Below are positions 409 through 18,110 of a stretch of 64,000 nucleotides of DNA, in pieces (position 1 is the stretch's first letter; every line of letters starts with the position of its first letter). This stretch comes from an uncultured archaeon (GTDB taxonomy: Archaea; Thermoproteota; Bathyarchaeia; Bathyarchaeales; Bathycorpusculaceae): the NCBI GenBank assembly GCA_963810275.1, contig CAWENF010000021.1:64001-128000 (forward strand), in the 5' to 3' direction. The notes under the pieces are model-generated. The model saw nothing but the letters and a program-made list of their open reading frames with translations, searched no databases and had not been told where the DNA came from. The position numbers and the translations under genes were made by a program.

Positions 409-2391
409 GTGAAGGACTTGGATTTTTCTATAATTTTCATTATAATACTCGAAGTTTTAATGGCGGTTCTTGCAGCATGGCTTATAAAAAAGGGCTCAGA
501 AATCAATTCGCCAAGGGAATCTTGGAAGGTGCTCTTCCCACTTGCCATGATGGTCGAGCTATTTGTCAGCATTGTCATTTACCTATACGTTCCAGAGGTA
601 CTCGCTGGATTAGCAGTCTCCAGCATGTGGATAATGCTTGTTATAGGCTTCCTTTGCGGCATAGTGTATTTTCTTGGACCTAAGACCATGGATGAAACCG
701 TTGGAGGGATTGTACGGGCAAAGTCCCTAATTAGCGCGTTGATCATCACCTTTGTTCTTTTGTTTGAATTATTCATGGGGTGGGCATTTGCGCTTCTTGT
801 AGGTACAATTCCAATCTCTGTTGACTTCCAAGGAATTTATTCAGCGCTAATTAGTTCTGCAAGTTCTTTCTGGTTTATTTTCATGACATCTATTGAGATG
901 GCAATTACTCTGTTTTTTGCAAGAAACAAGTTGCCAAAGGCATTCGTCGTGATAATGGCTTCTCAGACTTTGATAATGCTTCTTGCACCCACCTCGATTG
1001 CTAACTCTTTTTGGGTTGATTTCTCCTTGATTACTGGCAGCGCAGTTATGATTATTCTTTTTATTTACATTTTTGAATTCTTATACAAAAATCGAACTAC
1101 AAACTTGGGTGTTCTGAATTATCTGCTCTTTCTCTCGCTGGCCTATGCCTTAATGATGGCGGGTCAGTTTGTCTGGCTACTTAATGGTGACGCCACACTT
1201 TTTGTAGTGTCTATAATAGTGGAAATGGCAGTTTTCTTTGGAGTTATATTAGACGAAAGAAGACTTGCTTCTTCGCCTAGACGTTGGCAGTCAAGACCTT
1301 ACTGGGCCTTTGGAATCCTTGTTCTGTTATTTATATCCGAGTTCTTTATGGGAGCAGTCTTGGACATTCAGGCTTACGGGACAAGTTTTTTCACAAATAT
1401 GAATTTTGCTTCCGCGACAGGATCATTCATGGATGCCCTTAGCGCGGGCTTTTTCAATTTCATAACGTTCTTTAGCTCTATATCATTGTCGCCATGGTAT
1501 CTTATAATGATGGGAATAGAGATGGGAGCGCTTGTAGCTCTCAGAATAAGGTATACTCGAATACGTGAAATAAAGGTAATGTTTGCGCTTATGATTCTTG
1601 CCTATAGCCTATACACAGTACTTATACCTTATTTCATATTGCCCCAAGGAGTTCTTAGCCAAACACCATGGCTAGGTTGGAACATGGGGATAGGAACCGA
1701 AGGCGCCATTGTACCAACTATACTAACAGCGTTAATTGGCACATATCTGGTCAGCGGCATCCTTTCATTCCTTTTTGGCAGCAGGCAACTTTGCTCCGTA
1801 ATGTGCATGGCCCCTCTCATGTACCAAGGGACAACTATAGATGCCATGAAATCATTTAACGAAACCGGTCCGCTTGCACGTAGACTGCTCACCAACAAAA
1901 CCTCACTTTTTTACAAGGTGGTAGTATCGATAGTATGGCTCTCCTTGTTGGTTGGAGCAGTATTGTCCTACCTAACTGCAGTTGGAATTACAGATATCTC
2001 CGTATTTGGCATGGACCCAGCCTTTTTCCTATATTTATTATACTTTGGCTTTCTATGGTATATTTTATGGATGCTGATTCCCTTTGTCGGAACTTACGCC
2101 TGCGCGACAACTGGCATGTGTGGCTGGGGAGCATTCAACCAGCTTATATCCAGAGTGGGACTGTTTAAGCTAAAAGTAAAAGATAAATCAGTTTGTGTAC
2201 GCTGTTCAACGTGGGATTGTGCATGCGTCTGTCCTACAGGACTCACAAATTTGCCTTCCGAATTCATTGCCAAAGGTGAATATAAAAACTACAAATGCAT
2301 TGGCTGCGGGAACTGTGTCTCAGCTTGCCCATACAAAATTATGTCATTTTACGATGTAAGGCACTTCTTGAGGGAGAAGTTTCGAAATTAA
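409..2391 (+). CDS. Polytopic membrane protein with C-terminal 4Fe-4S ferredoxin domain (NapH/MauN/CcoG-like; resembles Sulfolobales SoxI/FoxG type)
   Basis: 660 aa with many TM segments. Cys motifs CSVMCMAP, CATTGMC, CVRCSTWDCACVCP and CIGCGNCVSACP. Confidence 0.8.
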   Translation: MKDLDFSIIFIIILEVLMAVLAAWLIKKGSEINSPRESWKVLFPLAMMVELFVSIVIYLYVPEVLAGLAVSSMWIMLVIGFLCGIVYFLGPKTMDETVGGIVRAKSLISALIITFVLLFELFMGWAFALLVGTIPISVDFQGIYSALISSASSFWFIFMTSIEMAITLFFARNKLPKAFVVIMASQTLIMLLAPTSIANSFWVDFSLITGSAVMIILFIYIFEFLYKNRTTNLGVLNYLLFLSLAYALMMAGQFVWLLNGDATLFVVSIIVEMAVFFGVILDERRLASSPRRWQSRPYWAFGILVLLFISEFFMGAVLDIQAYGTSFFTNMNFASATGSFMDALSAGFFNFITFFSSISLSPWYLIMMGIEMGALVALRIRYTRIREIKVMFALMILAYSLYTVLIPYFILPQGVLSQTPWLGWNMGIGTEGAIVPTILTALIGTYLVSGILSFLFGSRQLCSVMCMAPLMYQGTTIDAMKSFNETGPLARRLLTNKTSLFYKVVVSIVWLSLLVGAVLSYLTAVGITDISVFGMDPAFFLYLLYFGFLWYILWMLIPFVGTYACATTGMCGWGAFNQLISRVGLFKLKVKDKSVCVRCSTWDCACVCPTGLTNLPSEFIAKGEYKNYKCIGCGNCVSACPYKIMSFYDVRHFLREKFRN

Positions 2392-2610
2392 GTGCTATTG
2401 CAAAAAAGAAAAATCTCTTTTTACAACCTGCCAATTCAACTTCATCATGTAAGCCCTAAGCGTTCTTCCAACTTGGGGAAATAAATCCCATTAACCCTTA
2501 AGTGGATGCCCGCCTGTTCACCCATGCAAGTTTTGATTTTCAAATAAGGTATAATAGGTTCGCATAACAAATTATCTTTGAAAATTCTAGAATAAAGGAA
2601 GACAAATCCT

Positions 2611-4053
2611 TTGACAAGGAAGGGATTATATATATTTTTTGCGCTTCTGCTCTTGACTAACTTAATGGCTTCAATTTTGCTTGGAACATTAAACGTTGCT
2701 GTGGCAGAGCATCAAAACAGAGTAGACGCCATGGCAACCTCTCAATCCACTGACGACTGGCCAATGTTTCACCATGACGTTTACCACTCAGGTTATTCCA
2801 CATCCGCGGCTCCAACAACAAACCAGCTCCTTTGGAAATACGAAACCGGCAATATGGTTGAATCTTCGCCTATTGTCGCCAACGGCATAGTCTATGCAGG
2901 CTCTGATGACGGTTTTGTCTACACCTTGAATTCTTCAACTGGCAAATTGATATGGAAATACTCAATAGGTCCGATGGTGGATTCTTCGCCCGCTGTTGCT
3001 AACGACGTAGTCTATATCGGAGCACTAAATCGTGATGGCAACATAAGCATCATTTATGCTTTGAACGCTACAACAGGCATTCAAATATGGAACTTAACAA
3101 CATGCGGACCTGTAGGATCTTCTCCCACTTCCGCCAATGGCACAGTTTATGTAAGCGCCTACATCGGGTTTTTTAAAGGTGCAATTTATGCTTTGACCGC
3201 CGCAACAGGCGAATTAATATGGAACTACCAAACAGATGGAGGAATGGAATCTTCTCCTGCTGTTGCCAACGGCGTAGTCTATGTTGGGTCAAATGACTGC
3301 ATGGTCTATGCTTTGAATCAAGCAAGTGGAGCATTGCTATGGAACTTCACAACGGGCGGGAGTGTGACTTCTTCTCCCTCAGTTGCTAATGGTGTTGTAT
3401 ATGTTGGTTCATGGGATGATAACGTATATGCTTTGAATGCTGTAACTGGCAAGCTATTATGGAATTATACAACAGGCTTAAATGTGGGGTCATCACCCGC
3501 AGTAGTCGATGGCGTAGTCTACATTGGTTCAGAAGACGGGAACGTATACGCTTTGAATGCAGCAACTGGATCTTTAGTATGGGAATACACAACAAAAGGG
3601 GCAGTTTGGTCATCCCCTGCAGTCATTAACGGAGTGGTCTACATAGGGTCAGAAGACAGAAACATGTATGCCTTGGATGCTAAAACAGGCACACAATTAT
3701 GGAACTTTACAACAGGTAAACAAGTAGAGTCTTCGCCCGCTGTATCCAACGGAGTAATCTATGTGGGCTCAAATGATGGTAACGTATATGCCTTTGGAAC
3801 AAACACTGTGTCATCATTAAACCCAACCTCTAATAGCTCCCTTCAGCCATCGCCCTCAGCTTCTTTCTCAACGTTACTTATTGTCATACTCGCCATTATG
3901 ATTGCTGCAGTTATAACCATAGTCATAGCTTCTCTACCATTCAAGCGGAAAGCAAAAACAAACAGAAAAGCCGACAATATCCCCGAAAAAATAGAAATGA
4001 AAATGCCAAATTGCATAAAAACAGATTTTACTCAAAGTCTCAAACCTGAATGA
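2611..4053 (+). CDS. Membrane-anchored PQQ-like/BamB-type beta-propeller repeat protein
   Basis: Signal peptide, WPMFHHD motif, ~8 repeats of SSP(A/S)V.NGVVY.GS.DG.VYAL.A.TG.L.W, Ser/Pro linker and C-terminal TM. Confidence 0.9.
   Translation: MTRKGLYIFFALLLLTNLMASILLGTLNVAVAEHQNRVDAMATSQSTDDWPMFHHDVYHSGYSTSAAPTTNQLLWKYETGNMVESSPIVANGIVYAGSDDGFVYTLNSSTGKLIWKYSIGPMVDSSPAVANDVVYIGALNRDGNISIIYALNATTGIQIWNLTTCGPVGSSPTSANGTVYVSAYIGFFKGAIYALTAATGELIWNYQTDGGMESSPAVANGVVYVGSNDCMVYALNQASGALLWNFTTGGSVTSSPSVANGVVYVGSWDDNVYALNAVTGKLLWNYTTGLNVGSSPAVVDGVVYIGSEDGNVYALNAATGSLVWEYTTKGAVWSSPAVINGVVYIGSEDRNMYALDAKTGTQLWNFTTGKQVESSPAVSNGVIYVGSNDGNVYAFGTNTVSSLNPTSNSSLQPSPSASFSTLLIVILAIMIAAVITIVIASLPFKRKAKTNRKADNIPEKIEMKMPNCIKTDFTQSLKPE
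3214..3795 (+). repeat. ~120-bp imperfect tandem repeats encoding beta-propeller blades
   Basis: Units such as tatgctttgaat, tatggaa and tcttc(t/g)cc recur at 120-bp spacing. Confidence 0.75.
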
Positions 4054-4124
4054 TTGAAGTAGTGTCCATTAACCCACAAGTGGTTAAATATAAAGAAAAG
4101 CTCCTTATTCTTGGGCATGTGATA

Positions 4125-4553
4125 ATGAGCATGGACACTAGTAGTTTTACTTACATGAATAATTATCTTACTACAATATCCATTTCATTAATGCTAGTAG
4201 CTCTAGGGATCGCAATCAGCGGAATAGGTTTTGCCCGACTCAGAACCATGGAAGGACAAAAAGTTCATCGTTGGATGATGAGCGGAGGAGTCATTTTAAG
4301 CTTAATATCAATTTCCTTAGTCATGTTTCCTTCCCTGTTTATGTACTATTTAGGCGGTTACAGTATTACTTCTGGATTCTCAATTCTGCAGATAATTCAT
4401 TCAGTTGAAGGCGCTCCGGCGGTAGCATTATCTTTAATGTACCTCTTTAATGATTTACCTACACATACACGCAAATGGATGCGGATAACAGCTGTTCTAT
4501 GGATAACAAGTGTTGCACTAGGTGTAGCTGTCTATTGGACTATGCCATTTTAA
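4125..4553 (+). CDS. DUF420-like membrane protein (oxidase-associated)
   Basis: 4 TM helices, HRWMM and IH motifs. Converges on heme O synthase. Start moved from 4050 to ATG 4125 because a TATA-like sequence lies at 4085-4094. Confidence 0.7.
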   Translation: MSMDTSSFTYMNNYLTTISISLMLVALGIAISGIGFARLRTMEGQKVHRWMMSGGVILSLISISLVMFPSLFMYYLGGYSITSGFSILQIIHSVEGAPAVALSLMYLFNDLPTHTRKWMRITAVLWITSVALGVAVYWTMPF

Positions 4554-4554
4554 C

Positions 4555-5424
4555 CTAAACCACGCCCAAAACAATTTTATCAACTACAAGACCAAGCATT
4601 AAGGCTGCCAAGTAGGGCATAGATGCAAAGAAAACCCTAAATCCGTTTGCTTCAGAGGGCACCAAAGTAAGCCTTCTACTCTCAAGCAGTAGCCAAGCAC
4701 CCCCAGACAGCGCAAACAAAGTATACATGCCTCCAGCTAACCCCAGAACGGGTAATATTAAAGTTGACGCCACGGTAGCTATGTTAAAGAAAAAAACGAT
4801 CTTTGCCGTTAACCCTAAACCCGCCGTGACAGGAAGCATAGGAATCTTAGCCCGCCGATACTCAGCTACCTTCTTGATGGCAAGCCCCCACAGATGCCCC
4901 GGCGTCCAAAGAAAATCAACCGTTGAAACCAGAAACGGCAATGCACCCACAGAGTTCGCTACAGCTGTCCAGCCTGAAAGAGCAGCAAAGCACCCTGCAA
5001 GTCCACCTATGACCACATTCCAATTGCTTGTGCGTTTCAAAAGAATGGTGTATACCAACAGGTAAAAGATTGCCCCCGAAAACATCATGACAGCAGTTAA
5101 GGCGTTGAAAAAGTAGTAGCTCATACCTAAGCCTGCTCCAATTAGAAGCACTCCAAAAATCAATCCCTTCCCAGACGTAATCTTCCCTGAAGGAATTGCC
5201 CGCTTTGAGGTTCTCTGCATGAGCAGATCAGAGTCCCGGTCGTATACACAATTCAATGCGCCGCATCCTCCACAGGCTAGGTATCCAGCAAGACAAAAAA
5301 TCGTTAAATCTAACCAATTGATTGATGGATAAGCTGCAAGGAAGAAGCAAGTTATCCCAACCAGTAGGTTAAGCAACGTCACCTTGGGTTTGGTTAACTC
5401 TAAGTACTTGAGAATTTTATCCAT
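4555..5424 (-). CDS. cyoE: Protoheme IX farnesyltransferase (heme O synthase)
   Basis: Motifs LTKPKV, NCVYDRDSDLLMQRT..R.IPSG, YTILLKR, WTPGH and EY..A.IPMLPV. Confidence 0.95.
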   Translation of the reverse strand: MDKILKYLELTKPKVTLLNLLVGITCFFLAAYPSINWLDLTIFCLAGYLACGGCGALNCVYDRDSDLLMQRTSKRAIPSGKITSGKGLIFGVLLIGAGLGMSYYFFNALTAVMMFSGAIFYLLVYTILLKRTSNWNVVIGGLAGCFAALSGWTAVANSVGALPFLVSTVDFLWTPGHLWGLAIKKVAEYRRAKIPMLPVTAGLGLTAKIVFFFNIATVASTLILPVLGLAGGMYTLFALSGGAWLLLESRRLTLVPSEANGFRVFFASMPYLAALMLGLVVDKIVLGVV

Positions 5425-5445: not shown

Positions 5446-5949
5446 TCATCCATAATCGGCGATAATAGTAACCGTGCCCCAAAGCCCTTTTTCAGTTTGA
5501 CCAGAAATTGGGCTTGTATAGAAAAAGGAGGTACCTACAATGTTTGGGTTAAAAACAACCGAACCGCTTTCTCCTTGCTGTAATGGATTGCTAACTGACC
5601 CTATAGCTGCATCAAAGACTACGGAAGATTCTGATCGTCGATCATTTGTGATTTGGAAAGCATGCGGCATCTTTCCAATATTAATCACCGTTAAATTGAC
5701 TAAATCACTTGTTTTAAACCTAAGAGTTGGTCCTGGAGTTGATAATTTGTTTGGTTCAGTTCCAAATCCGTATTGTGTATCAGATATTTCTCCTGCATAA
5801 AGCGTGATGTTTAATGTTGGAATCTCAGATGAAGCTGTTCCAGCAATGTAAGGTTGCTGTATAGGTAAAAGCAAGAAGAGTGCTACTGCAACGATAAGCG
5901 CAATTGCACACGCTGCTATGACAACCAATGGATAATAAGACTTGTCCAT
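5446..5949 (-). CDS. Membrane-anchored cupredoxin-fold protein lacking type-1 copper ligands
   Basis: Paralog of 9295..9894 (TLYAG, PGPTL, PHAF), but FYTSPISGQTEKGLWG replaces YVCTVPGHISLGMWG. Confidence 0.8.
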   Translation of the reverse strand: MDKSYYPLVVIAACAIALIVAVALFLLLPIQQPYIAGTASSEIPTLNITLYAGEISDTQYGFGTEPNKLSTPGPTLRFKTSDLVNLTVINIGKMPHAFQITNDRRSESSVVFDAAIGSVSNPLQQGESGSVVFNPNIVGTSFFYTSPISGQTEKGLWGTVTIIADYG

Positions 5950-5952
5950 TCC

Positions 5953-6216
5953 CTATCGCCCCACCGAAAGTATAGCCGTAACAATTAACGTGCTAATAGT
6001 AATAATTGCCAGAAGCGGAAGCAGAGATATAACTTTTTTTTCATACCGCAAATTCATAAAAAAGGCAGCATTTGTAACAGCTTGTGAGCCAGCTAAAATG
6101 AGTATACTAACAGCTTTATATTCAACTGATAGAGCGGTTGTGAAAATATAGATCTCGCCAAAAGTTGCCGCTACTAATAACCCCCAGATACTTATGTACA
6201 ATGTTTTTCTGTCCAT
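5953..6216 (-). CDS. Heme-copper oxidase subunit IV (CyoD/CtaF family)
   Basis: 87 aa, 3 TM helices, Q.......FMNLRYE motif. SD GGAGTG upstream of ATG 6216. Follows subunit III. Confidence 0.85.
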   Translation of the reverse strand: MDRKTLYISIWGLLVAATFGEIYIFTTALSVEYKAVSILILAGSQAVTNAAFFMNLRYEKKVISLLPLLAIITISTLIVTAILSVGR

Positions 6217-6227
6217 TTTTTTCACTC

Positions 6228-7019
6228 CTATATCAAATAGAAAAGCGGGAAAAGAAAAATCCAAACAATGTCGACAAACGCCCAATAGATTCCAATAAGC
6301 TCAAGCGAAGTATGCGATAAAGGCGTAAATCGACCAGCAAAGCCTTTAGCCATAAGATAGGTAAGCCCACCTAAACCTATGCCTACATGAATGGCGTGTA
6401 ACCCCATCAATGTATAGTAACTAGAAGGTGCTAGTCCCCCAGTTATTACAAATCCGTTAGCAATCTCTCGCGGCCATTCGATGGCAAGTTTAACCATCAA
6501 AAATAACGAGCCTAAAGTGAAGGCACTTAGCAGCCCCATCTTTATGCCTAGTTGATCATTTTTTCTTGCTGATTGGACAGCAAGAACCATCGCCAGACTG
6601 CTCGTTAAAAGGAAAACAGTATTTACAGCCCCAATGACGACATTATGTGTCTCTCCAGCTACTGGCCACGTTGGGCTTCCTAATCGTACATATATATATC
6701 CGAAGATTATGCAGCCAAACAACACTATCTCGGACATTAGAAAAACCCAGACACCAATTTTCTCTTTGCTGGCAGTTTCAAAGGGCCATTTTTCTCTTAC
6801 GGGCTCCTTGACTACTGCATACTTGTCATGGTAGTCGTCTATGAACCATTTTACAACAGCACCCGCGATTATCACTAACCCAGCTATTGCAAGCGGGATA
6901 AACATGATAAATCCATATAGAAAAAGAATTGTACCGATCGCGATAACTACTGGAAGAAAAGTCCGTTTTTTTGGTTCTTCATCTATGGTGTTGTCCTGTT
7001 CATTCGTAGTCGTTGACAT
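6228..7019 (-). CDS. coxC: Heme-copper oxidase subunit III
   Basis: Motifs GVWVFLMSEIVLF, NTVFLLTSS, GLHAIHV and YWAFVDIVWIFLFPLFY. SD GGAGG upstream of ATG 7019. Confidence 0.93.
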   Translation of the reverse strand: MSTTTNEQDNTIDEEPKKRTFLPVVIAIGTILFLYGFIMFIPLAIAGLVIIAGAVVKWFIDDYHDKYAVVKEPVREKWPFETASKEKIGVWVFLMSEIVLFGCIIFGYIYVRLGSPTWPVAGETHNVVIGAVNTVFLLTSSLAMVLAVQSARKNDQLGIKMGLLSAFTLGSLFLMVKLAIEWPREIANGFVITGGLAPSSYYTLMGLHAIHVGIGLGGLTYLMAKGFAGRFTPLSHTSLELIGIYWAFVDIVWIFLFPLFYLI

Positions 7020-7020
7020 C

Positions 7021-8580
7021 TTAGCCGCCTCCTCCTTTTTCCACTGTTGATTCAGGCATGTCTGGTTCTGCCGAGATATAATCACCGGTCCATTCAGGTG
7101 CTACTGCATCCCACGGGTTTGGTTTGCAACGCTTGCCTCTAAAGGCGCTATGTCCAATATTTATAAAAGAAATTAAGAGAACAGGACCAAAGATAAGTGC
7201 GCCTATTGTAGCAACTAAATTAAAGGGCCACCATTCAGGATTGCTACCATAGCTGGCTACTCTTCTTGGCATGTCTACAAGCAAAAAGTATGGAAAATAA
7301 AGAACGTTGAAACCTAAGAACGAAAAAAGAAAAGTAATCTTTCCAATTTTCTCGTTGTACATTCTGCCTGTGATTTTAGGGAACCAGTAGTAGAGTGCAG
7401 CTACTAGACCAAAGATTGTGGTCCCCACCATTACATAATGAAAGTGTCCTACAACCCAGTAAGTACCTCTATAAGCATAATCCAAAGCTATTGAGGCCTG
7501 AAAAACACCTGTGATTCCGCCCAAAATTACGAAAAATAAAGCGCCCATTGCATAGAGCATAGGTGTAGGAATTTTCAAAGCGCTTTTGCGCAAAGTGAGA
7601 ATCAAACCAATAACTAAGCCCTCAAAAGGAACAGAAATCGCCATTGTCGTCAGGGAAAAAACTTCTCTAACTTGCAAGCTTATTCCTGTCATAAACATGT
7701 GATGGATCCATACTCCAGCACTAAGCACCGTAACTGCAGCCATTTCTATTATGAAAACTTTCTTCTGGAAAAGGGGTCTTTTACTGAATGTAACGAATAT
7801 CTCTGCTATGGCACCGAGAGCAGGGAGAACCACTATGTATACTTCGGGGTGTCCAAAAAACCAGAAAAATTGGTCCCATAAAAGTGCCCCCCCAAGAGGA
7901 CTGGAAAAGAATACAGTACCAAATACGCGGTCAGTAATAAGCAAGACAGCGGCTGCTGCTATGGGCGGAAAGGCAAAGAGCATCAGAAAATTTGTAAACA
8001 AAACAGACCAAGTGAACGGAGGCATTTTCCACCAGTGCATGCTTTTGATTCGTGTTCTAAGAATGGTAGTTATGAAATTAACTGAAGACATAGTAACTGA
8101 AGCCGCAAGTATACCTAACGCAAGAACACCAATAGCCATTCCAGGTTGCGGCATGTAAGCGCTTGTATTAAGCGGCGCATACATTGTCCAACCTGCTTGT
8201 GGTCCACCGCCTGGCAAAAATATGGTACTCACAAGCATAAGCCCGCTTAAAACGTACAACCAATAGCTCATTGCGTTTAATCTGGGAAAAGCCATTTCTT
8301 TTGCGCCTATCTGTGTTGGAACAAAATAGTTAGCCAAAGCTATTCCAAAAGGAGACAAAAACCAAAGAATCATTATCAAACCATGAAAACTAATGGCTTG
8401 TTCGTAAAGACCAGGTGTAAGAAGCCCACCATTTGGAACAGCCAGTTGGCCTCGAACCGTCTCCGCTATGGTACCGGCTAAAGTAAGAAAAAATATAGAA
8501 GTAACCAGATATAGAAGACCAACGTCTTTGTGGTTGGTAGTAGTTAACCATCTTTTTAGTGAAAACCCTTTTTCGTACAC
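7021..8580 (-). CDS. coxA: Heme-copper oxidase subunit I, A-family (A1-like GHPEVY)
   Basis: Motifs TTNHKDVG, FHGLIM, MAFPRLN, GWTMYAPL, WFFGHPEVY, WIHHMF, GHFHYV and MPRR. Confidence 0.97.
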   Translation of the reverse strand: MYEKGFSLKRWLTTTNHKDVGLLYLVTSIFFLTLAGTIAETVRGQLAVPNGGLLTPGLYEQAISFHGLIMILWFLSPFGIALANYFVPTQIGAKEMAFPRLNAMSYWLYVLSGLMLVSTIFLPGGGPQAGWTMYAPLNTSAYMPQPGMAIGVLALGILAASVTMSSVNFITTILRTRIKSMHWWKMPPFTWSVLFTNFLMLFAFPPIAAAAVLLITDRVFGTVFFSSPLGGALLWDQFFWFFGHPEVYIVVLPALGAIAEIFVTFSKRPLFQKKVFIIEMAAVTVLSAGVWIHHMFMTGISLQVREVFSLTTMAISVPFEGLVIGLILTLRKSALKIPTPMLYAMGALFFVILGGITGVFQASIALDYAYRGTYWVVGHFHYVMVGTTIFGLVAALYYWFPKITGRMYNEKIGKITFLFSFLGFNVLYFPYFLLVDMPRRVASYGSNPEWWPFNLVATIGALIFGPVLLISFINIGHSAFRGKRCKPNPWDAVAPEWTGDYISAEPDMPESTVEKGGGG

Positions 8581-8583: not shown

Positions 8584-9246
8584 CTAACTTACTCCTTGGC
8601 TTGCAGCGGTCTGGTTTAGCCATTGAGCAAATGCTTGTTGACTCATGACTACTAGATTAGCATCCATGAAGGTATGTCCAATTCCGCAGAGTTCATAACA
8701 TTTAATTTGATAAGTGAGTTCATTCTGTCCCTCGAGGGAGGGCACGCTTAACCAAATGATATTGTATCTATCGGGTATAGCATCAGTTTTAATCTTGAAC
8801 TGCGGTAATCCAAAATCATGCATAACGTCCTTGCTTGTAACATTAAAAATAACAGTCGTATCCACAGGGATTCTACAATCAGTGGCTACAGTTACATTGT
8901 TTGGATAAGTGAATTCAAATGCCCACTGGAAGGCAGTAACATCGATAACTATAGCATTTGGATCATTAGGCGGTGTTTGAATTCCATAAGCAACTTGATC
9001 AGACAGTATCGATAAAGTGAAAAGTATACTTAAAGAAACCATGGCAAGAACAATTGCTTCTCTTGCTCTGGATTTGAAATGTACTTTAGATATCTTGAAT
9101 TCCCGTCGCCCGACGTTCTTACGGTTAACATAAGCATAATAAACCATATAGCCAACTACTATGCCGCCAGCTACTATCCCTATTATGAAAAATGGTGTGA
9201 AAAGATTGTAGTAAGTTTCCGCTGTCGGGGGAATCGGCAAACTCAT
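8584..9246 (-). CDS. coxB: Heme-copper oxidase subunit II with CuA centre
   Basis: 2 TM helices, FQWAF, DVMH and CYELCGIGHTFM. No CxxCH heme c motif. Confidence 0.95.
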   Translation of the reverse strand: MSLPIPPTAETYYNLFTPFFIIGIVAGGIVVGYMVYYAYVNRKNVGRREFKISKVHFKSRAREAIVLAMVSLSILFTLSILSDQVAYGIQTPPNDPNAIVIDVTAFQWAFEFTYPNNVTVATDCRIPVDTTVIFNVTSKDVMHDFGLPQFKIKTDAIPDRYNIIWLSVPSLEGQNELTYQIKCYELCGIGHTFMDANLVVMSQQAFAQWLNQTAASQGVS

Positions 9247-9294: not shown

Positions 9295-9894
9295 TTAACT
9301 GACCACTACATTGCCCCACATGCCAAGAGAAATATGTCCTGGAACAGTGCATACATAGTAATAGTTGCCTGCTTTGTCAGGAGTAAATGTAACTGACGCT
9401 GATGTGCCTGGCGGTATATAGCTAGATATGTTAATGCCTGCACCAAACAATGGTGAGTTGCTTGTCGCTTTTGTTGAGACTATTTCCCATGAATGTGGAA
9501 TTTTACCCGCATTATGAACAGTCATGGTATACGTTGTACCCGCCTTAAGGTGTAAGGTAGGACCTGGAGAAACTATACTACTTGCGCTATCTCCGTAGCC
9601 ATAGGTACCTGAACCAGAGGTAACTGAGCCAGCGTATAATGTTAAAGAAGTCTGGCTCCCTGAACCAGACGGAGCGGGAGAAGTTGATGGTGAAACTGAT
9701 GTAGAAGTGGATGGTGTAGAAGAGGGGGAAATTGATGGGGAGGATACAGGCGTTGACGTCGGCAGCACATTTGATGAATTGGGTAACGTGATTTCGTAAG
9801 TTATTACCCCAACAGCTATGATAATCACTGTTACTACGATTGCAGCGACGTACCAGCCTATGCTTATTTTGGTATCTTCTGTGTTTTCTGCCAT
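9295..9894 (-). CDS. Membrane-tethered type-1 blue copper protein (sulfocyanin/rusticyanin/halocyanin-like)
   Basis: N-terminal TM, Ser/Thr/Pro linker, ligands PHSW and YVCTVPGHISLGM. First gene of the oxidase operon. Confidence 0.9.
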   Translation of the reverse strand: MAENTEDTKISIGWYVAAIVVTVIIIAVGVITYEITLPNSSNVLPTSTPVSSPSISPSSTPSTSTSVSPSTSPAPSGSGSQTSLTLYAGSVTSGSGTYGYGDSASSIVSPGPTLHLKAGTTYTMTVHNAGKIPHSWEIVSTKATSNSPLFGAGINISSYIPPGTSASVTFTPDKAGNYYYVCTVPGHISLGMWGNVVVS

Positions 9895-10064: not shown

Positions 10065-10625
10065 CTAATGGCGAGTTCTTTGAAGAACATTTAAAATTTT
10101 ATTTGCACGATCAACCCAGCCTAATCCCGCATATAAATCAAGTTTTGAATCTAGAGGCATTACTGAAATATTATGGCCCACAACTGAAACATAGTCTGAT
10201 GAAATACTAATTTTGTCACCCCAATCCCAATTATCAATCTGAAGTTGCAAATCTCCATAAACTTTAACGGGAACATCGTTTACTTGGAAATCAAAATTAT
10301 AGCTTCGAATTTTAATCGGATACTCTTTCTGTTCAACCAAAGCTTTACGCGGAAGACATTCTACTTTGAATTCTATGTCTGAGGGGTGAAAATCTTTGAC
10401 TCTGATGAAAATTTCTTGAGCACCCTCTTTGGTTGTTATTATTTCTATTCTTTCGGGATCCACATCTACGGTTCTTATGGCTTCCCCTAAATCACCACAT
10501 ATCATCCAAGGCGTACTTATGTCACCGATTTTACCTTCTAAGGCAACCAATGCATCTATGTATTTCAAAGCTATTAATTTAACAGGGCGTTTAACATCTT
10601 TTTCTGAAGTTTCAATATAAATCAA
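10065..10625 (-). CDS. Hypothetical protein with nucleotidyltransferase-like fold and degenerate catalytic motif
   Basis: WMICGDLGEAIRTVDVDPERIEIIT resembles the W...GS.....G....P.DIDI.T NTase motif, with RIE in place of DID. Confidence 0.6.
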   Translation of the reverse strand: MIYIETSEKDVKRPVKLIALKYIDALVALEGKIGDISTPWMICGDLGEAIRTVDVDPERIEIITTKEGAQEIFIRVKDFHPSDIEFKVECLPRKALVEQKEYPIKIRSYNFDFQVNDVPVKVYGDLQLQIDNWDWGDKISISSDYVSVVGHNISVMPLDSKLDLYAGLGWVDRANKILNVLQRTRH

Positions 10626-10779: not shown

Positions 10780-11762
10780 ATGTCAACTGATGAAACGGCT
10801 AACGACCAGACTAAAGAGCAAAACAGCAAACCTATGGATAGACGACGCTTCATCAAGTATGGAGTCGCAGGCGTTATTGGTGCGGGTGCCGCAAGCGCTA
10901 TAGAAATACCAGTTTTGACAAATATGGTTAACGCTGACACGACTAAGGTGCAAGAGCTTCAAAGTCAAGTTAGCAGTTTAAACAGTGAAGTTAGCAGTTT
11001 GAATAGTCAAGTCAACACTAGATAAAACTCAACTTGCCGCCGCACAGAGTCAACTATCGGGTGCACAAGCAATTATTGACTTTAGCATTACGGAACAAAA
11101 AGAGCTTGAGGCAATTGTTGAAACAGTAATCCCCAACGATTCGTCTGGTCCTGGAGGGAAGGAAGCAGGCGTTGTCTACTTCATTGCCAATCAAATATCC
11201 ACAGATTATGGTAGTAACGCTAGGATGTACATGAAAGCGCCCTTTGTCCAACCTGGTTTAAGTGGCCCCGTAACAGTTGATGGAATAACATATCCTGAAG
11301 GCACATATGATGTTCCATTTTTCTCAGGCATGAAATACCAGTACAACCTAACTATGAGGGAGTTCTGGAGAGTAGGTCTTGGAAGGATTAGAGAAATATT
11401 CAAACAGCGTATTGGGCAAAAACTTTGAAGATTTAAACACAAATGACCGAACATCAATGCTAAACGACCTCTATGACAACAAGCCTAGCGACTTCAATGG
11501 AATTGTTCCCCGTGACTTCTTCCAAGAGTTGCTACTTATGACATGGTCAGGCTTCTTTATGGATCCCGCATATGGTGGTAACATAGGAATGGTTGGTTGG
11601 AAACTCACCGGTTTTAGTGGCGCTAACATGGGCAACGCATTCAACGATGGCAGAGATGTTTTAAAGTTGATGGTAGCCAGCACTCCAACAAGATATGCAC
11701 CGCATAGTTTAGGCGAATACCAAAAAACGCTAAAAATAATCAATGGAGGAACAAGTTCATGA
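10780..11762 (+). pseudogene. Gluconate 2-dehydrogenase subunit 3 (gamma)-like Tat protein, interrupted by two +1 frameshifts
   Basis: Tat motif DRRRFIK. After a shift at ~11020 the frame reads ELEAIVETVIPNDSSGPGGKEAGVVYFI...YG...MYMKAPF. After a shift at ~11379 it reads GFFMDPAYGGNIGMVGWKLTGF. Removing 2 nt gives 326 aa. Confidence 0.85.
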
Positions 11763-13567
11763 GCCAAGTAATCACTCATCCATCCGTAGACGTTGTCGTC
11801 TTAGGCTTGGGTGCAATGGGAGGAGTCGTAGCCACAGAGTTGGCTAAGGCAAACTACAAAGTAGTAGGTTTAGAAAGAGGACCTCAATGGGATTACTACA
11901 ATGATTTCTATGCCACGAAATATGATGAATGGGGCATAGGCATGATGCGCAAATACAGCGACCTATTGAGAACTTCAACAGTAACTATGAGAAACAACAG
12001 AAACCAGTTTGCCCAGCCCGTCCGTAGAAACACACCCCCAGTTGCAGGACAATTCACTTCAACAGGTTATGGTGTTGGAGGTGCATGTCAGCACTATTCG
12101 GGCAACATGGGGCGCTATTCACCATGGGTCTATGAGATGTATTCACAGACTGTGAACCGATATGGCTTAGATTTCCTCAACAATGCTGTACCTCACCAAG
12201 ACATCACTGATTGGCCAATGACATATAACGACTATGTTCCCTACTATGAAACATGGGAGCAGATGTGGGGAGTTTGCGGAACAAATGAAGGACCGCTTCT
12301 TCCAAGCCTAACAGGGTATCCTCTGCCGCCTCCACCAGACACGCCTATCGGAACAGCCTTCAAGAGTGCAGCCACAGATTTAGGATATACACCCTTCCCA
12401 ACACCACTCGCTTTAGCCTCTAAAGGCTTCGTCAACCAATACGGCGTAGCCGTTCAGCAATGCGCATATGATGGCTGGTGTGGAGCTGCATGCAACTATG
12501 TTTGTGAAACAGGTGCGAAAGCAAACACAGACTTTAGAGTTATACCTGCTGCTTTGAAAACTGGGAATCTCGAGATGAGACTTCACAGCTACATATTCCG
12601 ATTGGATACTGATAGTTCTGGAAAAATTACCGCTGCCCGCTACTATGACCCACAAGGCAGGGTTAACGTTCAACCCGCCAAGGTATTCTTCAACGGTCTT
12701 TGGGGATTCAATGCAGTAAAAATGATGCTGCACTCAGGAATCGGCACTCCCTATGACCCCGTGAAAATCACCGGTTCAATGGGTAGAGGACCAGCAACAG
12801 GAGACCCGGGTGCAGCAGTCAGAAGTGCCTCTGGAACCCTTAACATAGGAGCCAATGCGTATCCCGCAGGCAACGCTGGCGGAGGCTACTCAATTCGAGA
12901 CTTAGCTGATGACAACTTTGATCACACAGGCTTAGACTTTATCGGAGGCGCCTACCCGGTGGGCGTCGGAAGCTTCACAGGTGGAGGCCCAACGAACTTC
13001 TACATCTACGCAGCAAACCCAAACAAGAACATGATTGGAAGCACATTTAAAGCAGGCCTTAAAGACCATTTCCTGCCCACAAAAACAAAGCTAACACTTT
13101 CGCCTTATGGGATGTGGCCGCCGACAACCGATTGGTTCATTGATTTGGACCCACATTACACAGACATCTATGGAGACCCACTACCGAGATATACTATAGA
13201 TTGGGGCATGAACACCGTTAAATGCGCCAATTACCTTGCACCAATGTATGGCGATATACTGTCAAAAATGGGGGCAAGCAATGTTCAGGTCTCCAACCCA
13301 GTTAATACTGAAAGCCATATGACTACCTGGAGTATTCACATTCGAGGCGGTGCACGACTAGGAACTGATCCGGCAGTTTCCGTTTTTAACAAGTGGCAGC
13401 AATGCTGGACCAGCGACAACCTGTTTGGAGCAGGCGAATATTGTGACCCGACAGGCGATAACACAACTATCGGTGGAACGCATCCAGTAGGACCAACATC
13501 GTATGTTGCTGCTGAAGGCATAAAGAAATATCTGCAAAGCCCAGGTCAGCTTGTATCATCACCTTAA
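11759..13567 (+). CDS. GMC-family flavoprotein oxidoreductase (gluconate 2-dehydrogenase alpha-subunit-like)
   Basis: DVVVLGLGAMGG...LERG, GVGG, DWPMTY, Cys cluster CAYDGWCGAACNYVCETGAK, DLDPHYTDIYGDPLPR, H..GGARLG.DP..SV.N. ATGA overlap with the gamma gene. No signal peptide. Confidence 0.9.
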   Translation: MSQVITHPSVDVVVLGLGAMGGVVATELAKANYKVVGLERGPQWDYYNDFYATKYDEWGIGMMRKYSDLLRTSTVTMRNNRNQFAQPVRRNTPPVAGQFTSTGYGVGGACQHYSGNMGRYSPWVYEMYSQTVNRYGLDFLNNAVPHQDITDWPMTYNDYVPYYETWEQMWGVCGTNEGPLLPSLTGYPLPPPPDTPIGTAFKSAATDLGYTPFPTPLALASKGFVNQYGVAVQQCAYDGWCGAACNYVCETGAKANTDFRVIPAALKTGNLEMRLHSYIFRLDTDSSGKITAARYYDPQGRVNVQPAKVFFNGLWGFNAVKMMLHSGIGTPYDPVKITGSMGRGPATGDPGAAVRSASGTLNIGANAYPAGNAGGGYSIRDLADDNFDHTGLDFIGGAYPVGVGSFTGGGPTNFYIYAANPNKNMIGSTFKAGLKDHFLPTKTKLTLSPYGMWPPTTDWFIDLDPHYTDIYGDPLPRYTIDWGMNTVKCANYLAPMYGDILSKMGASNVQVSNPVNTESHMTTWSIHIRGGARLGTDPAVSVFNKWQQCWTSDNLFGAGEYCDPTGDNTTIGGTHPVGPTSYVAAEGIKKYLQSPGQLVSSP

Positions 13568-15484: not shown

Positions 15485-16051
15485 ATGAAAAAAATGGCAA
15501 TATTTCTATTGGTATCTCTCATGGCAGCAGCATCTTTGACAATTGGTGCAGTACCCGTTGAAGCACAAGGGAACACAGCTAACATTACATTGTATGGTGG
15601 ACCTGTATCCTCAGGAGCCTCTGGAACCTATGGGTTTGGATACTCAGCAGACAACATAACCTCGCCTGGACCTACAATCACTTTGCACGATGGAGAAAAA
15701 GTAACAGTAACTTTTCACAACGTTGACACATCTTTGCCACACTCCTTTGCAGTAACCACAGGAAAAAGCGACAGCTCAACAGTGCTATTTAATTCTGAAA
15801 CTAACCCTGGAACATACGTTCAGCCTGGTCAAACAGCTACAGTGACTTTCACAGTCAGCGACAATGTTGGTGATTACTACTACATATGCAAAGTACCAGG
15901 ACACGTTGACTTAGGCATGTGGGGAAACTGTGTAATCGAAGCAGCCATTCCTGAATTTCCAATGAGTATCATGCTTATCTTTGTACTGGCTGCAGGAGCT
16001 GCAGTAGCGATTTCAGTGGCTCGAATTAAGACCAAACCTAAACTTGTTTAA
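15485..16051 (+). CDS. Secreted type-1 blue copper protein with PEF-CTERM sorting signal
   Basis: Signal peptide, PHSF, YICKVPGHVDLGM, then IPEFP followed by TM and a basic tail. Confidence 0.9.
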   Translation: MKKMAIFLLVSLMAAASLTIGAVPVEAQGNTANITLYGGPVSSGASGTYGFGYSADNITSPGPTITLHDGEKVTVTFHNVDTSLPHSFAVTTGKSDSSTVLFNSETNPGTYVQPGQTATVTFTVSDNVGDYYYICKVPGHVDLGMWGNCVIEAAIPEFPMSIMLIFVLAAGAAVAISVARIKTKPKLV

Positions 16052-16173: not shown

Positions 16174-16548
16174 ATGACACTAGTTTTTGTCGCTTTAGGA
16201 ATCGGAATAATCGGCATGGCGATCGCTAGGATTAGAAACAGAGATTCCATTCAGCTACATAGGTGGACAATGACAGGCGCAATCGTACTAAACTTAATCG
16301 CAATAGGCGTTGTAATGCTTCCTTCACTGTTCATATTCTACCTTAGCCCAAATCTTGAAATGGCATCTTCTTTTTCGATTCTACAACTAATCCACGCCAT
16401 TGCTGGGATTCCAGCAATAACTTTTGCGTTAATATTTGCATTAAATGATCTGCCGAAACCTACTAAAAAATGGATGCGCATAACCGCTTCTTTGTGGCTT
16501 ACAAGCATAGCTTTGGGTGCAATAGTTTACTTCACTATGCCGAATTAA
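16174..16548 (+). CDS. DUF420-like membrane protein (paralog of 4125..4553)
   Basis: Shares VALG, HRW, PSLF, FSILQ.IH and NDLP..T.KWMRITA.LW with the paralog. May start at ATA 16132. Confidence 0.75.
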   Translation: MTLVFVALGIGIIGMAIARIRNRDSIQLHRWTMTGAIVLNLIAIGVVMLPSLFIFYLSPNLEMASSFSILQLIHAIAGIPAITFALIFALNDLPKPTKKWMRITASLWLTSIALGAIVYFTMPN

Positions 16549-16553
16549 GTTTT

Positions 16554-18110
16554 TCATTTTTTATGAAATTTTGCAATCTCTTTGGAAATCAGCAGTTCGT
16601 CGATATGGAGCATCAACGATGAAACTTCGTATGCACGTCTCACAATAGAACGTAAAACTGCAATAGACTGAGTGCAAACGCCTTCGGTGCATCCCTGCAC
16701 ACCAACACCATAGCTTGCCAAACCGCTATCATGAAGTTGACGTAGTTTTATGAGTATTTCTGTAGAATTTAAGCCATAGTTTTCAGCGAGACATCGAGGT
16801 ATATCAATCAATGCTTCAGCAAAGGCTTCTATAGCCAACTGATGCCTGTTTGGAATAGTCAATGCATAGCGATGAAGTTCTTGAGCTATCATAATTTCAA
16901 CTGCTCCAGCACCTGGCAAAAACTTAGGCTCTTTGTCAGAAAGCTTCAGAGTTATCAAACTATTTTTTATAGCAACTTCAAGCTCATCAAGAATACAGCG
17001 GGTATTTGCCCTTAACAAAAACGTGGCACCGCCACAGCCTTGAAAAGTAACAGTTTTTTCCAGATCTAACTTATCCACAGACAACGCTTCAGCTTTACCC
17101 ACATCATCTTTAGATAAGTCACTGATTAACGCTAAAACTTTAGCGCCAGTTGCCCTAGCAATGCCTTCTAAATCGTTTTTGGTCACACTTTCAATTGCAA
17201 AGATACCGTTCATTACCAAAGCAGTTTTCTGACGCTCTTCGATAGGCTGCGCAGAGACCAAAACATTGATTTTATGCTTGACAAGCACCTTCAAGTAACT
17301 ATTTTCTAATTTTTCTGTTACCTGATTTAATTGTTGAATTTGTTGATGATTTGTTATGTTAACCTGGATAGGAATGGGTCCTTCTCGCCGCATTTTAAGC
17401 TCCAAACGATTTATGCCTAAATGCCCACTGGTAACGGCAACTCGTAGATCTTTAACGTGATTAGGCATGTTTGGGTGAGCCTTATCCTTTCTTATAATAA
17501 TACCATCGATCAAAGTTGATTCTTGAGCACAGCAACCGATTTTTTTTATAAAACCTACATTATCGATGTCGAAGCTTCCGTTAGAGAAACTTCGGGTATA
17601 TGCTCGTCTAATCATCAAACGTAGTTTTGGCGTCAGAAGGTTTCTGCCACAATCTATAGAATCTAAAACATCACCGTCGCAACCTATTGATTTTGATTGC
17701 ATTTCCATAATTTCAGTGGCTTTTTTTGCCGCCAAACTATACCCTTCAACAATTGTATTGGGGTGTAATCCCATTGCGGATAGAGTGTCAGCCTGTTTTA
17801 GCAGAGCTGAAAGAAAAACTACAAAGCAGGCGGCGCCATCCCCGATTTCATTTCTCTGCATCTTTGCTGATTCCGCAACAATAATAGCGGGGGGATAATT
17901 AATAGCAAGTTCGTCTAAAATAGCAATTGAATCTTTTGTAACTTTTACTACTTGCTCTGGGCCACGGTTGTAGGTTACAAGCTTGTATGCACCTGTTGGT
18001 CCTATTGTGCTTCTTATTTTATCTGAAGCAAATATGGCTTGTTGAAGGTTTTGGGTCCATGCCTCTTTTGCGTTAAATCTGTTATAATTGGAAGAAATTA
18101 CTCGCTCCAT
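16554..18110 (-). CDS. Divergent group II chaperonin (TCP-1/thermosome-like)
   Basis: Motifs STIGPTGAYK, EIGDGAACF, LHPNTIVEGY, PGAGAVE, AFAEALIDIPRCLAENYG and MLHIDE. Confidence 0.88.
   Translation of the reverse strand: MERVISSNYNRFNAKEAWTQNLQQAIFASDKIRSTIGPTGAYKLVTYNRGPEQVVKVTKDSIAILDELAINYPPAIIVAESAKMQRNEIGDGAACFVVFLSALLKQADTLSAMGLHPNTIVEGYSLAAKKATEIMEMQSKSIGCDGDVLDSIDCGRNLLTPKLRLMIRRAYTRSFSNGSFDIDNVGFIKKIGCCAQESTLIDGIIIRKDKAHPNMPNHVKDLRVAVTSGHLGINRLELKMRREGPIPIQVNITNHQQIQQLNQVTEKLENSYLKVLVKHKINVLVSAQPIEERQKTALVMNGIFAIESVTKNDLEGIARATGAKVLALISDLSKDDVGKAEALSVDKLDLEKTVTFQGCGGATFLLRANTRCILDELEVAIKNSLITLKLSDKEPKFLPGAGAVEIMIAQELHRYALTIPNRHQLAIEAFAEALIDIPRCLAENYGLNSTEILIKLRQLHDSGLASYGVGVQGCTEGVCTQSIAVLRSIVRRAYEVSSLMLHIDELLISKEIAKFHKK

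Follow-up and report, generated by a model that had tools for sequence, protein, structure and literature searches.

The fructose dehydrogenase FdhSCL, the FAD-glucose dehydrogenase FAD-GDH (FAD, flavin adenine dinucleotide) and the gluconate 2-dehydrogenase of acetic acid bacteria and Burkholderia are the membrane-bound flavoprotein complexes closest to the dehydrogenase described here. Enzymes of the FdhL/FAD-GDH kind contain a 3Fe-4S cluster and deliver their electrons to ubiquinone, and in the FdhL-type family a cytochrome c subunit receives single electrons from the Fe-S cluster. Among archaea, oxidases served by blue copper proteins are known from Sulfolobus, where the sulfocyanin SoxE works with SoxM, from haloarchaea (halocyanin) and from ammonia-oxidising archaea (plastocyanin-like proteins). 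In Paracoccus, electrons flow from methylamine dehydrogenase to amicyanin, then to cytochrome c551i and the aa3 oxidase. Herein, an island of genes for a haem-copper oxidase, blue copper proteins and an exported flavoprotein dehydrogenase is described from an uncultured archaeon of the class Bathyarchaeia, whose members are generally taken for strict anaerobes. It occupies the 1-18110 region of a stretch of 64,000 nucleotides (assembly GCA_963810275.1, contig CAWENF010000021.1, positions 64,001 to 128,000), the whole of which is referred to as the window.

The components of the island belong to known kinds: blue-copper-fed archaeal oxidases and periplasmic dehydrogenase-to-cupredoxin chains are established, and oxidases of Bathyarchaeia are already in print for the order Houtuarculales. 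As in the chains of Sulfolobus, haloarchaea and ammonia oxidisers, the oxidase is of the A type with a CuA site, an anchored type-1 copper protein is encoded beside it, and no soluble cytochrome c accompanies them. Those archaeal chains are fed by quinol through Rieske/cytochrome b proteins, whereas no cytochrome b was found in the genome that carries the island. The Paracoccus chain offers a second parallel, since the island is likewise proposed to connect an exported dehydrogenase through blue copper to an A-type oxidase, bypassing the quinone pool. Unlike the Paracoccus enzyme, which depends on tryptophan tryptophylquinone, the dehydrogenase here would be an FAD/Fe-S protein; furthermore, the Paracoccus chain is bacterial and passes electrons via c-type cytochromes. 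Judged from sequence and gene order, the island is real and native to its genus, and it is reasonably probable that it encodes a branch in which a periplasmic dehydrogenase would reduce blue copper, blue copper would reduce CuA, and the oxidase would reduce O2.

Gene identities in the window were based on a listing of open reading frames (ORFs) and on Pfam and NCBIfam profile searches, with a minimum ORF length for scanning of 70 aa in the first 22 kb and of 110 aa thereafter (Table 1). Nearly all genes named in the original prediction were confirmed in this way, among them the oxidase subunits II-I-III-IV, the haem O synthase and the membrane 4Fe-4S protein. Subunit I (coxI) contains the motifs FHGL, GHPEVY, HHMF and GHFHY, which supply all six His that ligate CuB and the low-spin and high-spin haems, and GHPEVY, holding the cross-link Tyr and the helix-VI Glu, is invariant in all nine aligned sequences. 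Because the haem and CuB histidines and HPEVY are present, subunit I is, on its sequence motifs, an A1-type oxidase of the A family. Its best solved relative is subunit I of the Bacillus subtilis aa3-600 oxidase (E 3.8e-115). The closest relative bearing a name, at 69% identity, comes from a metagenome-assembled genome (MAG) labelled 'Candidatus Bathyarchaeota archaeon' (L014), in which subunit III is fused to subunit I in a 777-aa ORF. The CuA motif of subunit II, H...CxExCxxxHxxM, is conserved in the window and in five aligned relatives, and no cytochrome c domain is fused to it. All oxidase ORFs of the window are open. None of the scanned window ORFs matched the cytochrome c, cytochrome b, Rieske, CtaA or Sco families, so that the description of the island as free of cytochrome c stands for the window; it does not extend to the genome, as set out below.

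The three cupredoxin genes of the genome all lie inside the island. In the two type-1 copper proteins, the His, Cys, His and Met ligands are invariant in 19 aligned homologs, and the copy next to coxII has an N-terminal anchor followed by a linker rich in Ser, Thr and Pro. Weak matches to the SoxE and rusticyanin profiles were found among the anchored type-1 copper proteins. By hydropathy and signal analysis, the CuA site, the anchored cupredoxins and the dehydrogenase exported by twin-arginine translocation (Tat) are all predicted to lie on the outer face of the membrane.

The dehydrogenase consists of a large flavoprotein subunit and a small subunit of the Gluconate_2-dh3 family. In phmmer searches, the best solved relatives of the large subunit were FdhL (PDB 7W2J and 8K6K, E 4e-17) and FAD-GDH (PDB 6A2U, E 2e-11), the likeness to solved enzymes amounting to only about 65 bits. 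Like FdhSCL and FAD-GDH, it possesses an N-terminal GxGxxG motif, a Cys cluster that aligns to their 3Fe-4S region and a conserved catalytic His (H528, invariant in 38 homologs). Within the cluster motif, which aligns to the Cys-rich stretch of FdhL, C235, C241 and C249 are invariant and C245 is found in at least 90% of 38 homologs, giving a fourth Cys that is extra to the known complexes. The large subunit has no signal peptide of its own. As in FdhSCL and FAD-GDH, the small subunit carries the Tat signal for both subunits (RRRF in the window, RRxFIK in the consensus of 39 homologs), and eight intact small-subunit homologs scored 68-106 bits against PF13618. The island enzyme differs from these complexes in its archaeal host and in its linkage to cupredoxins, a nucleotidyltransferase-like protein and a paralog of the thermosome. 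It also differs in having no multihaem cytochrome c subunit nearby; the sole ORF of the genome with at least two CxxCH motifs is a subunit of a cbb3-type oxidase on another contig (C6). In the distant homologs as well, none of 77 ORFs from seven metagenome loci carried two or more CxxCH motifs.

The small-subunit gene of the window is spread over three reading frames, compared with one in relatives. Logan contigs of four public runs, two of DNA (X1, which holds 65% of the search words, and X4) and two of RNA (X2, X3), were compared with window positions 1-20000 as assembled contigs rather than reads. The base at 11022 is missing in contigs of X1, X4 and X3, and the base at 11377 in those of X1 and X3. 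Removal of both bases gives a single 326-codon frame that is 58% identical over 300 residues to the intact L014 ortholog. Because independent contigs lack those bases and their removal restores one frame, the frame breaks are read as assembly indels. A small-subunit pseudogene was ruled out on the same grounds, contigs of three runs lacking precisely these two bases. Further single-base indels were seen in the X1 contigs at 65, 15402 and 19599, and hemB, on another contig of the genome (C2:18824-19729), is also split over three frames. Given indels of this sort, genes that appear fragmented in similar assemblies need to be treated with caution.

The distribution of the island was followed in 101 genomes drawn from the genus, this one included; repeated draws were assumed to be the same set, as their handles recur. 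An A-type coxI occurs in 26 of the 101 genomes. All 26 carriers encode a cupredoxin and 20 encode the dehydrogenase, compared with 15 and three, respectively, of the 75 other genomes (41 and 23 genomes altogether). The co-occurrence of dehydrogenase and cupredoxin with the oxidase, on which the original prediction had staked its chain, was therefore found in relatives. The Fe-S membrane protein is present in 11 genomes, eight with the A-type coxI and three without. A cbb3-type coxI was counted in 12 genomes (one A-type carrier and 11 others), with one further fragment of unassigned type, and a haem-copper oxidase of any type in 38 of the 101. The dehydrogenase gene and coxI are physically close: 3-5 kb separate them in 19 of the 20 genomes that have both. 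A cupredoxin is present in all 23 dehydrogenase genomes, and in two genomes without an A-type coxI (G360 and G388) the thermosome paralog, cupredoxin and dehydrogenase genes are still adjacent. In four relatives (L014, L094, L095 and L101) the order is conserved as thermosome paralog, DUF420, cupredoxin, coxII-I-III-IV, cupredoxin, ctaB, 186-aa gene, dehydrogenase and small subunit, which provides the synteny in related MAGs that had been asked of the island. In a fifth relative, coxII is accompanied by the Fe-S membrane protein, and the dehydrogenase is missing. In G022 (L101, C3:60000-79999), coxI, coxIII, ctaB, the 186-aa gene and the dehydrogenase gene lie in many frame-shifted pieces between intact neighbours, through either decay or a poor consensus.

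Beyond the genus, a search of 16 genomes from the order's other families found no coxI. A related coxI is carried by 32 of 301 genomes of the class, 29 of which belong to one family (29 of 43 sampled) and show 48-53% identity. In the phylum sample, coxI of other families reached 51-54% identity, and in one family, with 43 carriers among 43 genomes, only 36-39%; the last family is suspected to consist of ammonia oxidisers. A phylum-wide sample of 300 other genomes did not yield the dehydrogenase. Among metagenomes, 67 loci with dehydrogenase homologs of 43-73% identity were collected. The small subunit lies upstream of the large one in all 44 loci with enough flank, and the 186-aa gene downstream in 25 of 34. 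Where at least 1.3 kb of downstream sequence was available (30 loci), the next gene was the thermosome paralog in 10, ctaB and the oxidase genes in nine, a cupredoxin in three, and another gene or nothing in eight. Distant homologs are found in archaeal contexts, for instance with an A-type ATPase or an H+-PPase. Some of these (45-53% identity) stand beside one or two sugar-type transporters of the major facilitator superfamily (L203, 8375-11592; L207, 9480-12691; L217, 11159-11521), which suggests a sugar-type substrate or product. In L198, the homolog is divergent to a gene of the plastocyanin/azurin type (4768-5550), and its flank contains no oxidase genes.

Within the class, aa3-type oxidases have been reported from Houtuarculales (Houtuousia; Ca. 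Paludivitaceae) (PMC10321748; PMC11619403). One of these papers calls cytochrome c oxidases exclusive to Houtuousia (PMC10321748), and the loss of the Wood-Ljungdahl pathway is reported for that group. The family with 29 carriers among 43 genomes is presumed to be Houtuarculales; it shares with the island the class, the coxII-I-III-IV core and a coxI of 48-53% identity. Unlike Houtuousia, the genome studied here keeps CdhC of the carbon monoxide dehydrogenase/acetyl-CoA synthase (CODH/ACS), and the anaerobe-type background anticipated for the host is thereby supported. The loci examined from this presumed Houtuarculales family (f35) contain the cox core only, some with ctaB, and tblastn revealed no cupredoxin, dehydrogenase, DUF420 or thermosome-paralog gene within about 10 kb in five f35 loci and the single f26 locus (L134). 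The genus itself is probably Bathy-6 (subgroup 6; Baizomonas of PMC10321748; GTDB g__RBG-16-57-9). A microoxic lifestyle of some Bathy-6 members was proposed from genes for superoxide dismutase and pyruvate oxidase (PMC7110647). A Bathy-6 genome paper discusses traces of O2, and its main text names no terminal oxidase (PMC11697101). No report was found of such oxidases in Bathy-6 or of an island joining dehydrogenase, cupredoxin and oxidase, although supplementary gene tables (PMC11697101; table S7 of PMC10321748) could list cox genes; in two mud-volcano papers, oxidases are assigned to bacteria only. The presence of a haem-copper oxidase in 38 of 101 sampled species of one genus contrasts with published reports that limit such oxidases to another order.

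In the proposed chain, the dehydrogenase would be folded and loaded with its cofactors in the cytoplasm, where the thermosome paralog and the nucleotidyltransferase-like protein may assist, and would leave the cytoplasm by the Tat route by means of its small subunit. Outside the cell, it would then oxidise a substrate of the sugar or polyol type, and single electrons would pass from FAD through the Fe-S cluster to the anchored blue copper proteins. These would reduce CuA and subsequently the haems, and the oxidase would reduce O2. A path through blue copper is favoured because a cytochrome c subunit is absent and because no carriers other than anchored blue copper proteins are encoded together with the enzyme, which holds for each genome that has it. 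Such a short branch would be independent of quinones; it would remove O2 and, if the oxidase pumps protons, conserve energy under microoxic conditions. Retention of CODH/ACS points to microoxic use or O2 removal rather than to an aerobic lifestyle. Bathy-6 MAGs are reported to have no known quinone pathway (PMC11697101). The extracytoplasmic chain first proposed agrees with the predicted topology of all partners; the transfer of electrons from dehydrogenase to copper to CuA we infer from gene linkage only.

Several observations weigh against this chain. The counted genomes are related and not independent, so that the counts are descriptive and overstate the support. The pairing of dehydrogenase and oxidase is not obligate, the former being absent from six of the 26 A-type genomes and present in three without an A-type oxidase. 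Membership of the large subunit in the GMC family falls below threshold (Pfam GMC_oxred_C, 18.2 bits against a cut-off of 24.6); of the Tat-linked GMC dehydrogenase first proposed, the Tat small subunit and an FdhL-like large subunit hold, and the Pfam support for GMC is weak. The fold of the third cupredoxin, encoded next to the haem O synthase, is recognisable, but its Cys/His/Met copper ligands are lost: one Cys, inside the anchor, and one His remain. The protein was therefore ruled out as a copper carrier in this genome, and only two of the three cupredoxins originally counted retain copper ligands. Its C..H..M ligands are kept by four of five relatives (L014, L094, L095 and L101) and lost in the window copy and L096.

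The proton channels of the oxidase give further reason for caution. In a HMMER alignment, SVPFEGLVI of the window stands against SIPTGVKIF of 6KOC chain A, which replaces by Leu and Phe the helix-VIII Lys and Thr that we take to be the K-channel residues; the replacement is common to four aligned relatives of the genus. In addition, the D-channel entry Asp (NHKD) is present in the window and L014, while L094, L095 and L096 have Arg or Gln. Given the altered K-channel residues and the variable D-channel Asp, proton uptake and pumping may differ or be impaired. Haem supply is a further difficulty. AhbA/B, for which the model matched exactly the three haem-making archaeal controls, and ferrochelatase were not found in the genome, which is 92.6% complete. 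CtaA was found neither in this genome nor in five oxidase-bearing congeners, a weak negative, as the model also missed Sulfolobus acidocaldarius. AhbA/B is likewise missing from 25 of the 38 oxidase-bearing genomes of the genus, including ones that are 96-100% complete. Of the 101 genus genomes, 36 have the AhbA/B pair, and its presence is not associated with an oxidase (13 of 38 with an oxidase, 23 of 63 without). Of complex III, CtaA and haem synthesis, for which a genome search had been suggested, cytochrome b, CtaA, AhbAB and ferrochelatase were not found, and aminolaevulinate dehydratase (hemB) is present, in pieces. Transcription of the island, finally, receives a weak hint. Contigs of two RNA libraries match, at 95-100% likeness, parts of the small subunit, the dehydrogenase, the second cupredoxin (15558-16112) and coxII, and no other genes of the 20 kb, but carry-over of DNA is possible. 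These libraries covered four (X2) and eight (X3) of 30 bins, the uncovered parts being uninformative, and two 31-base X2 pieces on coxI that continue into unlike sequence were ignored.

A rather unlikely alternative is that the oxidase and the cupredoxins work together, and that the dehydrogenase module is a separate extracellular sugar-oxidising unit with another acceptor, the oxidase having another donor. The six A-type genomes that lack the dehydrogenase and the three that have it without the oxidase would fit such a separation, as would distant homologs whose loci are free of oxidase genes for 6-7 kb (L203, L207, L208). Furthermore, the thermosome paralog tracks the dehydrogenase (22 of 23 genomes) more tightly than the oxidase (20 of 26), and the NapH-like Fe-S membrane protein would be an alternative redox partner in eight of the 26 A-type genomes. 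It speaks against a separate module that, of the 20 genomes with both, 19 have the dehydrogenase gene no more than about 5 kb from coxI, and that all 23 dehydrogenase genomes have a cupredoxin, which stays beside the dehydrogenase even in G360 and G388, where the A-type oxidase is missing. Beside the dehydrogenase, searches revealed neither a cytochrome c gene nor one for another carrier, and the genome yielded no cytochrome b that would feed the oxidase from quinol. A complex prediction of the large subunit, small subunit and cupredoxin domain, made with the L014 proteins and without controls, gave no answer (a score of nil) and counts neither way.

The branch could also serve the removal of O2 only, protecting the O2-sensitive CODH/ACS metabolism without useful proton pumping and without a role in supporting respiration, which is considered quite unlikely. 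Replacement of the K-channel Lys and Thr across the clade, the variable D-channel Asp and the retention of CdhC are in keeping with this function, and so is a short donor chain that bypasses all coupling sites other than the oxidase. Subunits III and IV are nevertheless still present, as is the helix-VI Glu of HPEVY, and an altered channel might make use of a conserved Glu located two residues from the lost Lys. Moreover, even a non-pumping oxidase that takes electrons from outside and protons from inside builds a charge gradient.

It is improbable that the island is a decaying or conditionally useless relic, inactive here unless haem is scavenged. In keeping with such a fate, AhbAB, ferrochelatase and CtaA were not found, and there are the cupredoxin without ligands, the island genes in pieces in G022 and a thermosome paralog with stop codons in G365. 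All oxidase genes of the window are open, however, and the only broken gene of the island is explained by assembly indels; such indels also affect hemB, so that the fragmentation seen in relatives may itself be error. The catalytic residues have been preserved throughout 26 genomes and 67 metagenome loci, and RNA-library contigs match the island. Foreign DNA, whether in a chimeric contig or as a binning contaminant from an aerobe, is scarcely credible: a genome contamination of 4.45% and the absence of the dehydrogenase from 300 other phylum genomes, which fits a past acquisition from outside, are outweighed by a 295-kb contig that also bears an archaeal 16S rRNA gene, the canonical thermosome, pyk and uvrABC, by a G+C content of the island (0.39-0.46) like that of the rest of the contig, by the lack of joints in independent-run contigs across window positions 1-20000, and by the same island in 26 of 101 genus genomes, one of which (G012) shares even the flanking PHO4 and PhoU genes with the window.

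Beyond the chain from dehydrogenase through copper to the oxidase, a more far-reaching version can be formulated, which is regarded as doubtful. In this version, the genus would possess a branch free of quinones and cytochromes in an acetogen-type archaeon, with anchored blue copper proteins in place of the cytochrome c subunit of the bacterial relatives, a rebuilt K-channel, a dedicated maturation set (the highly divergent chaperonin paralog and the nucleotidyltransferase-like protein) that the dehydrogenase needs ahead of Tat export, and scavenged haem that is converted to haem O. Dependence on scavenged haem is suggested because most carriers lack known synthesis of haem b or haem A, and is likened to the facultative haem-dependent respiration of lactic acid bacteria. 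If the chain from dehydrogenase through copper to the oxidase operates in the way set out above, these archaea could burn sugars or polyols at their surface where O2 is present in traces, and would need neither quinones nor a bc complex, which would change the reading of the niche of these archaea at oxic-anoxic interfaces and of their part in lignocellulose turnover. Two oddities can be tested, namely a flavoprotein dehydrogenase in which blue copper would replace the cytochrome c partner, and a thermosome paralog that accompanies just one exported enzyme. The most unusual leads are this paralog and the missing haem pathway.

The genome comprises 2.26 Mb in 28 contigs, with a completeness of 92.6% and a contamination of 4.45% (CheckM-type estimates). 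By genome-wide kinship, it is congeneric with a named Candidatus Bathyarchaeota MAG, in line with the Bathyarchaeia origin first suggested; that relative's genome contains no small-subunit rRNA gene with which the 16S rRNA gene could be compared. That the contig is not chimeric is likewise supported by its context, with the 16S rRNA gene on the 295-kb contig and the recurrence of the island in the genus. A second oxidase cluster lies on contig C6 (13.2 kb; 7304-13199) and encodes a CcmF/NrfE-like haem lyase, a DUF420 protein, CcoN, a CcoO with two fused cytochrome c domains and, cut by the contig end, the first part of CcoP. CcoO scored 117.5 bits against PF02433 (FixO; cut-off 29.6) and contains three CxxCH motifs, and CcoN scored 274.5 bits against TIGR00780, below the cut-off of 583. 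Orthologs of 71-87% identity occur in genus genomes (11 besides this one), one of them a single-contig assembly, which argues that the cbb3 cluster is not contamination. Because of this cluster with its haem-c subunits, the genome is, by its gene content, not cytochrome-c-free. C-family reductases are described as sparsely distributed in Archaea (PMC11214002). Profile searches of the genome found neither cytochrome b nor Sco. Genes for the large subunit of a phage terminase and for a TIR-domain protein lie on contig C6 as well.

Several accessory genes complete the island. On the minus strand, the 186-aa gene is followed by the first type-1 cupredoxin, coxII, coxI, coxIII, COX4_pro, the cupredoxin-fold gene without ligands and the haem O synthase. 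To the left of the latter, and convergent with it, lie a DUF420 paralog, a beta-propeller with pyrroloquinoline quinone (PQQ) repeats and the 660-aa polytopic protein with two 4Fe-4S motifs. The divergent right arm holds the Gluconate_2-dh3 small subunit, the 602-aa flavoprotein, a GT2-like gene, an A4 peptidase, the second type-1 cupredoxin, DUF420 and a Cpn60/TCP-1 gene. The end of tatC is found directly upstream of the island, so that the tat genes sought for the host are represented.

Table 1. Features of the island and its left border in the window, with the profile matches or sequence traits on which each identity is based.
Feature	Window position	Strand	Evidence
tatC, 3' end (Tat translocase)	1..216	+	PF00902 123.3 bits at contig positions 63367-64032; 256-aa open frame running into the window
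660-aa polytopic membrane protein, C-terminal 2x[4Fe-4S] module	409..2391	+	Fer4_7 and Fer4_10 at residues 590-644
PQQ-repeat beta-propeller, between Fe-S protein and DUF420	2611-4053		signal peptide and C-terminal anchor
DUF420 paralog (CtaM-like)	4050..4553	+	PF04238 17.6 bits, below cut-off
Haem O synthase (CtaB/CyoE)	4555..5424	-	TIGR01473 250.3 bits (cut-off 210.3); NF003349 251 (cut-off 246)
Membrane-anchored cupredoxin-fold protein, ligands lost	5446..5949	-	Cu-oxidase_3 27 bits
Oxidase subunit IV-like (COX4_pro)	5953..6285	-	PF03626 31.4 bits (cut-off 28.9)
Oxidase subunit III	6228..7085	-	PF00510 67.5 bits
Oxidase subunit I, A1-type	7021..8580	-	PF00115 428.8 bits
Oxidase subunit II, complete CuA site	8584..9246	-	PF00116; TIGR02866 148.8 bits (cut-off 147.7)
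Membrane-anchored type-1 (blue) copper protein, candidate CuA donor	9295..9894	-	PF00127 36.9 bits; SoxE 29.4 bits
Soluble 186-aa protein, nucleotidyltransferase-like	10065..10625	-	PF10706 match only in the L014 ortholog
Tat-signal small subunit, Gluconate_2-dh3 family	10780..11762	+	PF13618 45.5 bits for the C-terminal piece; RRRF motif
FAD/Fe-S dehydrogenase large subunit (GMC-like)	11759..13567	+	FdhL/FAD-GDH relatives; GMC_oxred_C below cut-off
Second type-1 copper protein	15485..16051	+	Cu-oxidase_3, Cu-oxidase_2 and SoxE matches; signal peptide and C-terminal anchor
DUF420/CtaM-like assembly factor	16174..16548	+	PF04238 33.5 bits (cut-off 30.5)
Divergent group II chaperonin (thermosome) paralog	16554..18110	-	PF00118 325.9 bits

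The chaperonin gene at the right end of the island had been put forward as a taxonomic marker, a role for which it proved unsuitable. Its PF00118 score contrasts with 586.8 bits for the canonical thermosome at 31722-33320, to which it is 28.5% identical, and GDGTTT has changed to GDGAAC. The paralog is present in only 25 of the 101 genus genomes, namely 22 of the 23 with the dehydrogenase and three of the 78 without; because it is so restricted and tracks the dehydrogenase, its use as a housekeeping synteny anchor or taxonomic marker was ruled out. It belongs to the island and is linked to the dehydrogenase module. In G365 (C14:124786-126351), the paralog contains 14 stop codons, by decay or poor consensus.

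The 186-aa protein of the window has no Pfam match even at E up to 5. Its L014 ortholog matches PF10706 at 22.5 bits (cut-off 21) and an atlas search provided a lead to PF10706 clusters, so that the protein looks nucleotidyltransferase-like by sequence. The 660-aa Fe-S protein has about 14 hydrophobic segments and matches NapH/MauN at 40-42 bits over residues 439-648, far under the cut-off. In the genus, it adjoins coxI in several of the 11 genomes that carry it, and atlas look-alikes in Nitrososphaerota and Thermoplasmatota provide a lead only. It is possibly an optional accessory with a role in redox or copper handling.

Two DUF420 genes were named at the outset. The copy on the right arm exceeds the PF04238 cut-off and is syntenic with the oxidase in four relatives, and the copy left of the haem O synthase, which scores below it, is supported by matches to the same DUF420 gene of relatives at 45-56% identity. 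A third DUF420 gene adjoins the cbb3 cluster. Like CtaM of Bacillus subtilis and Staphylococcus aureus, these are small four-helix membrane proteins encoded beside haem-copper oxidase genes; unlike in those bacteria, three copies are present, one of them beside a cbb3 oxidase, and no Sco partner was found. By analogy, the DUF420 proteins would act as CtaM-like assembly factors. CtaM/DUF420 is needed to assemble both haem-copper oxidases of B. subtilis, and copper export has been proposed as its role (PMC13344008).

A few further observations were made on coxI and on the remainder of the window. The conserved Glu two residues upstream of the lost Lys (coxI residues ~314-325) is shared between the genus and one further family (L134), and coxI of L136 has Asp at this position. 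In another Bathyarchaeia family, an oxidase of a second type retains the canonical VPSGVKVF. The PQQ-repeat propeller of the island scores far under the cut-offs for PQQ dehydrogenases and is not kept in the island of the relatives examined; a second protein of this kind is encoded at window 43077-45734. ARAGORN detected no tRNA in the whole window. The lowest G+C of the window (0.34-0.38) is reached at 33320-37026, where about 3.7 kb contain a single ORF of at least 110 aa. Finally, window 26472-29804 encodes a 1110-aa fusion of a CheB methylesterase, a CheR methyltransferase, a PAS domain and a histidine kinase.

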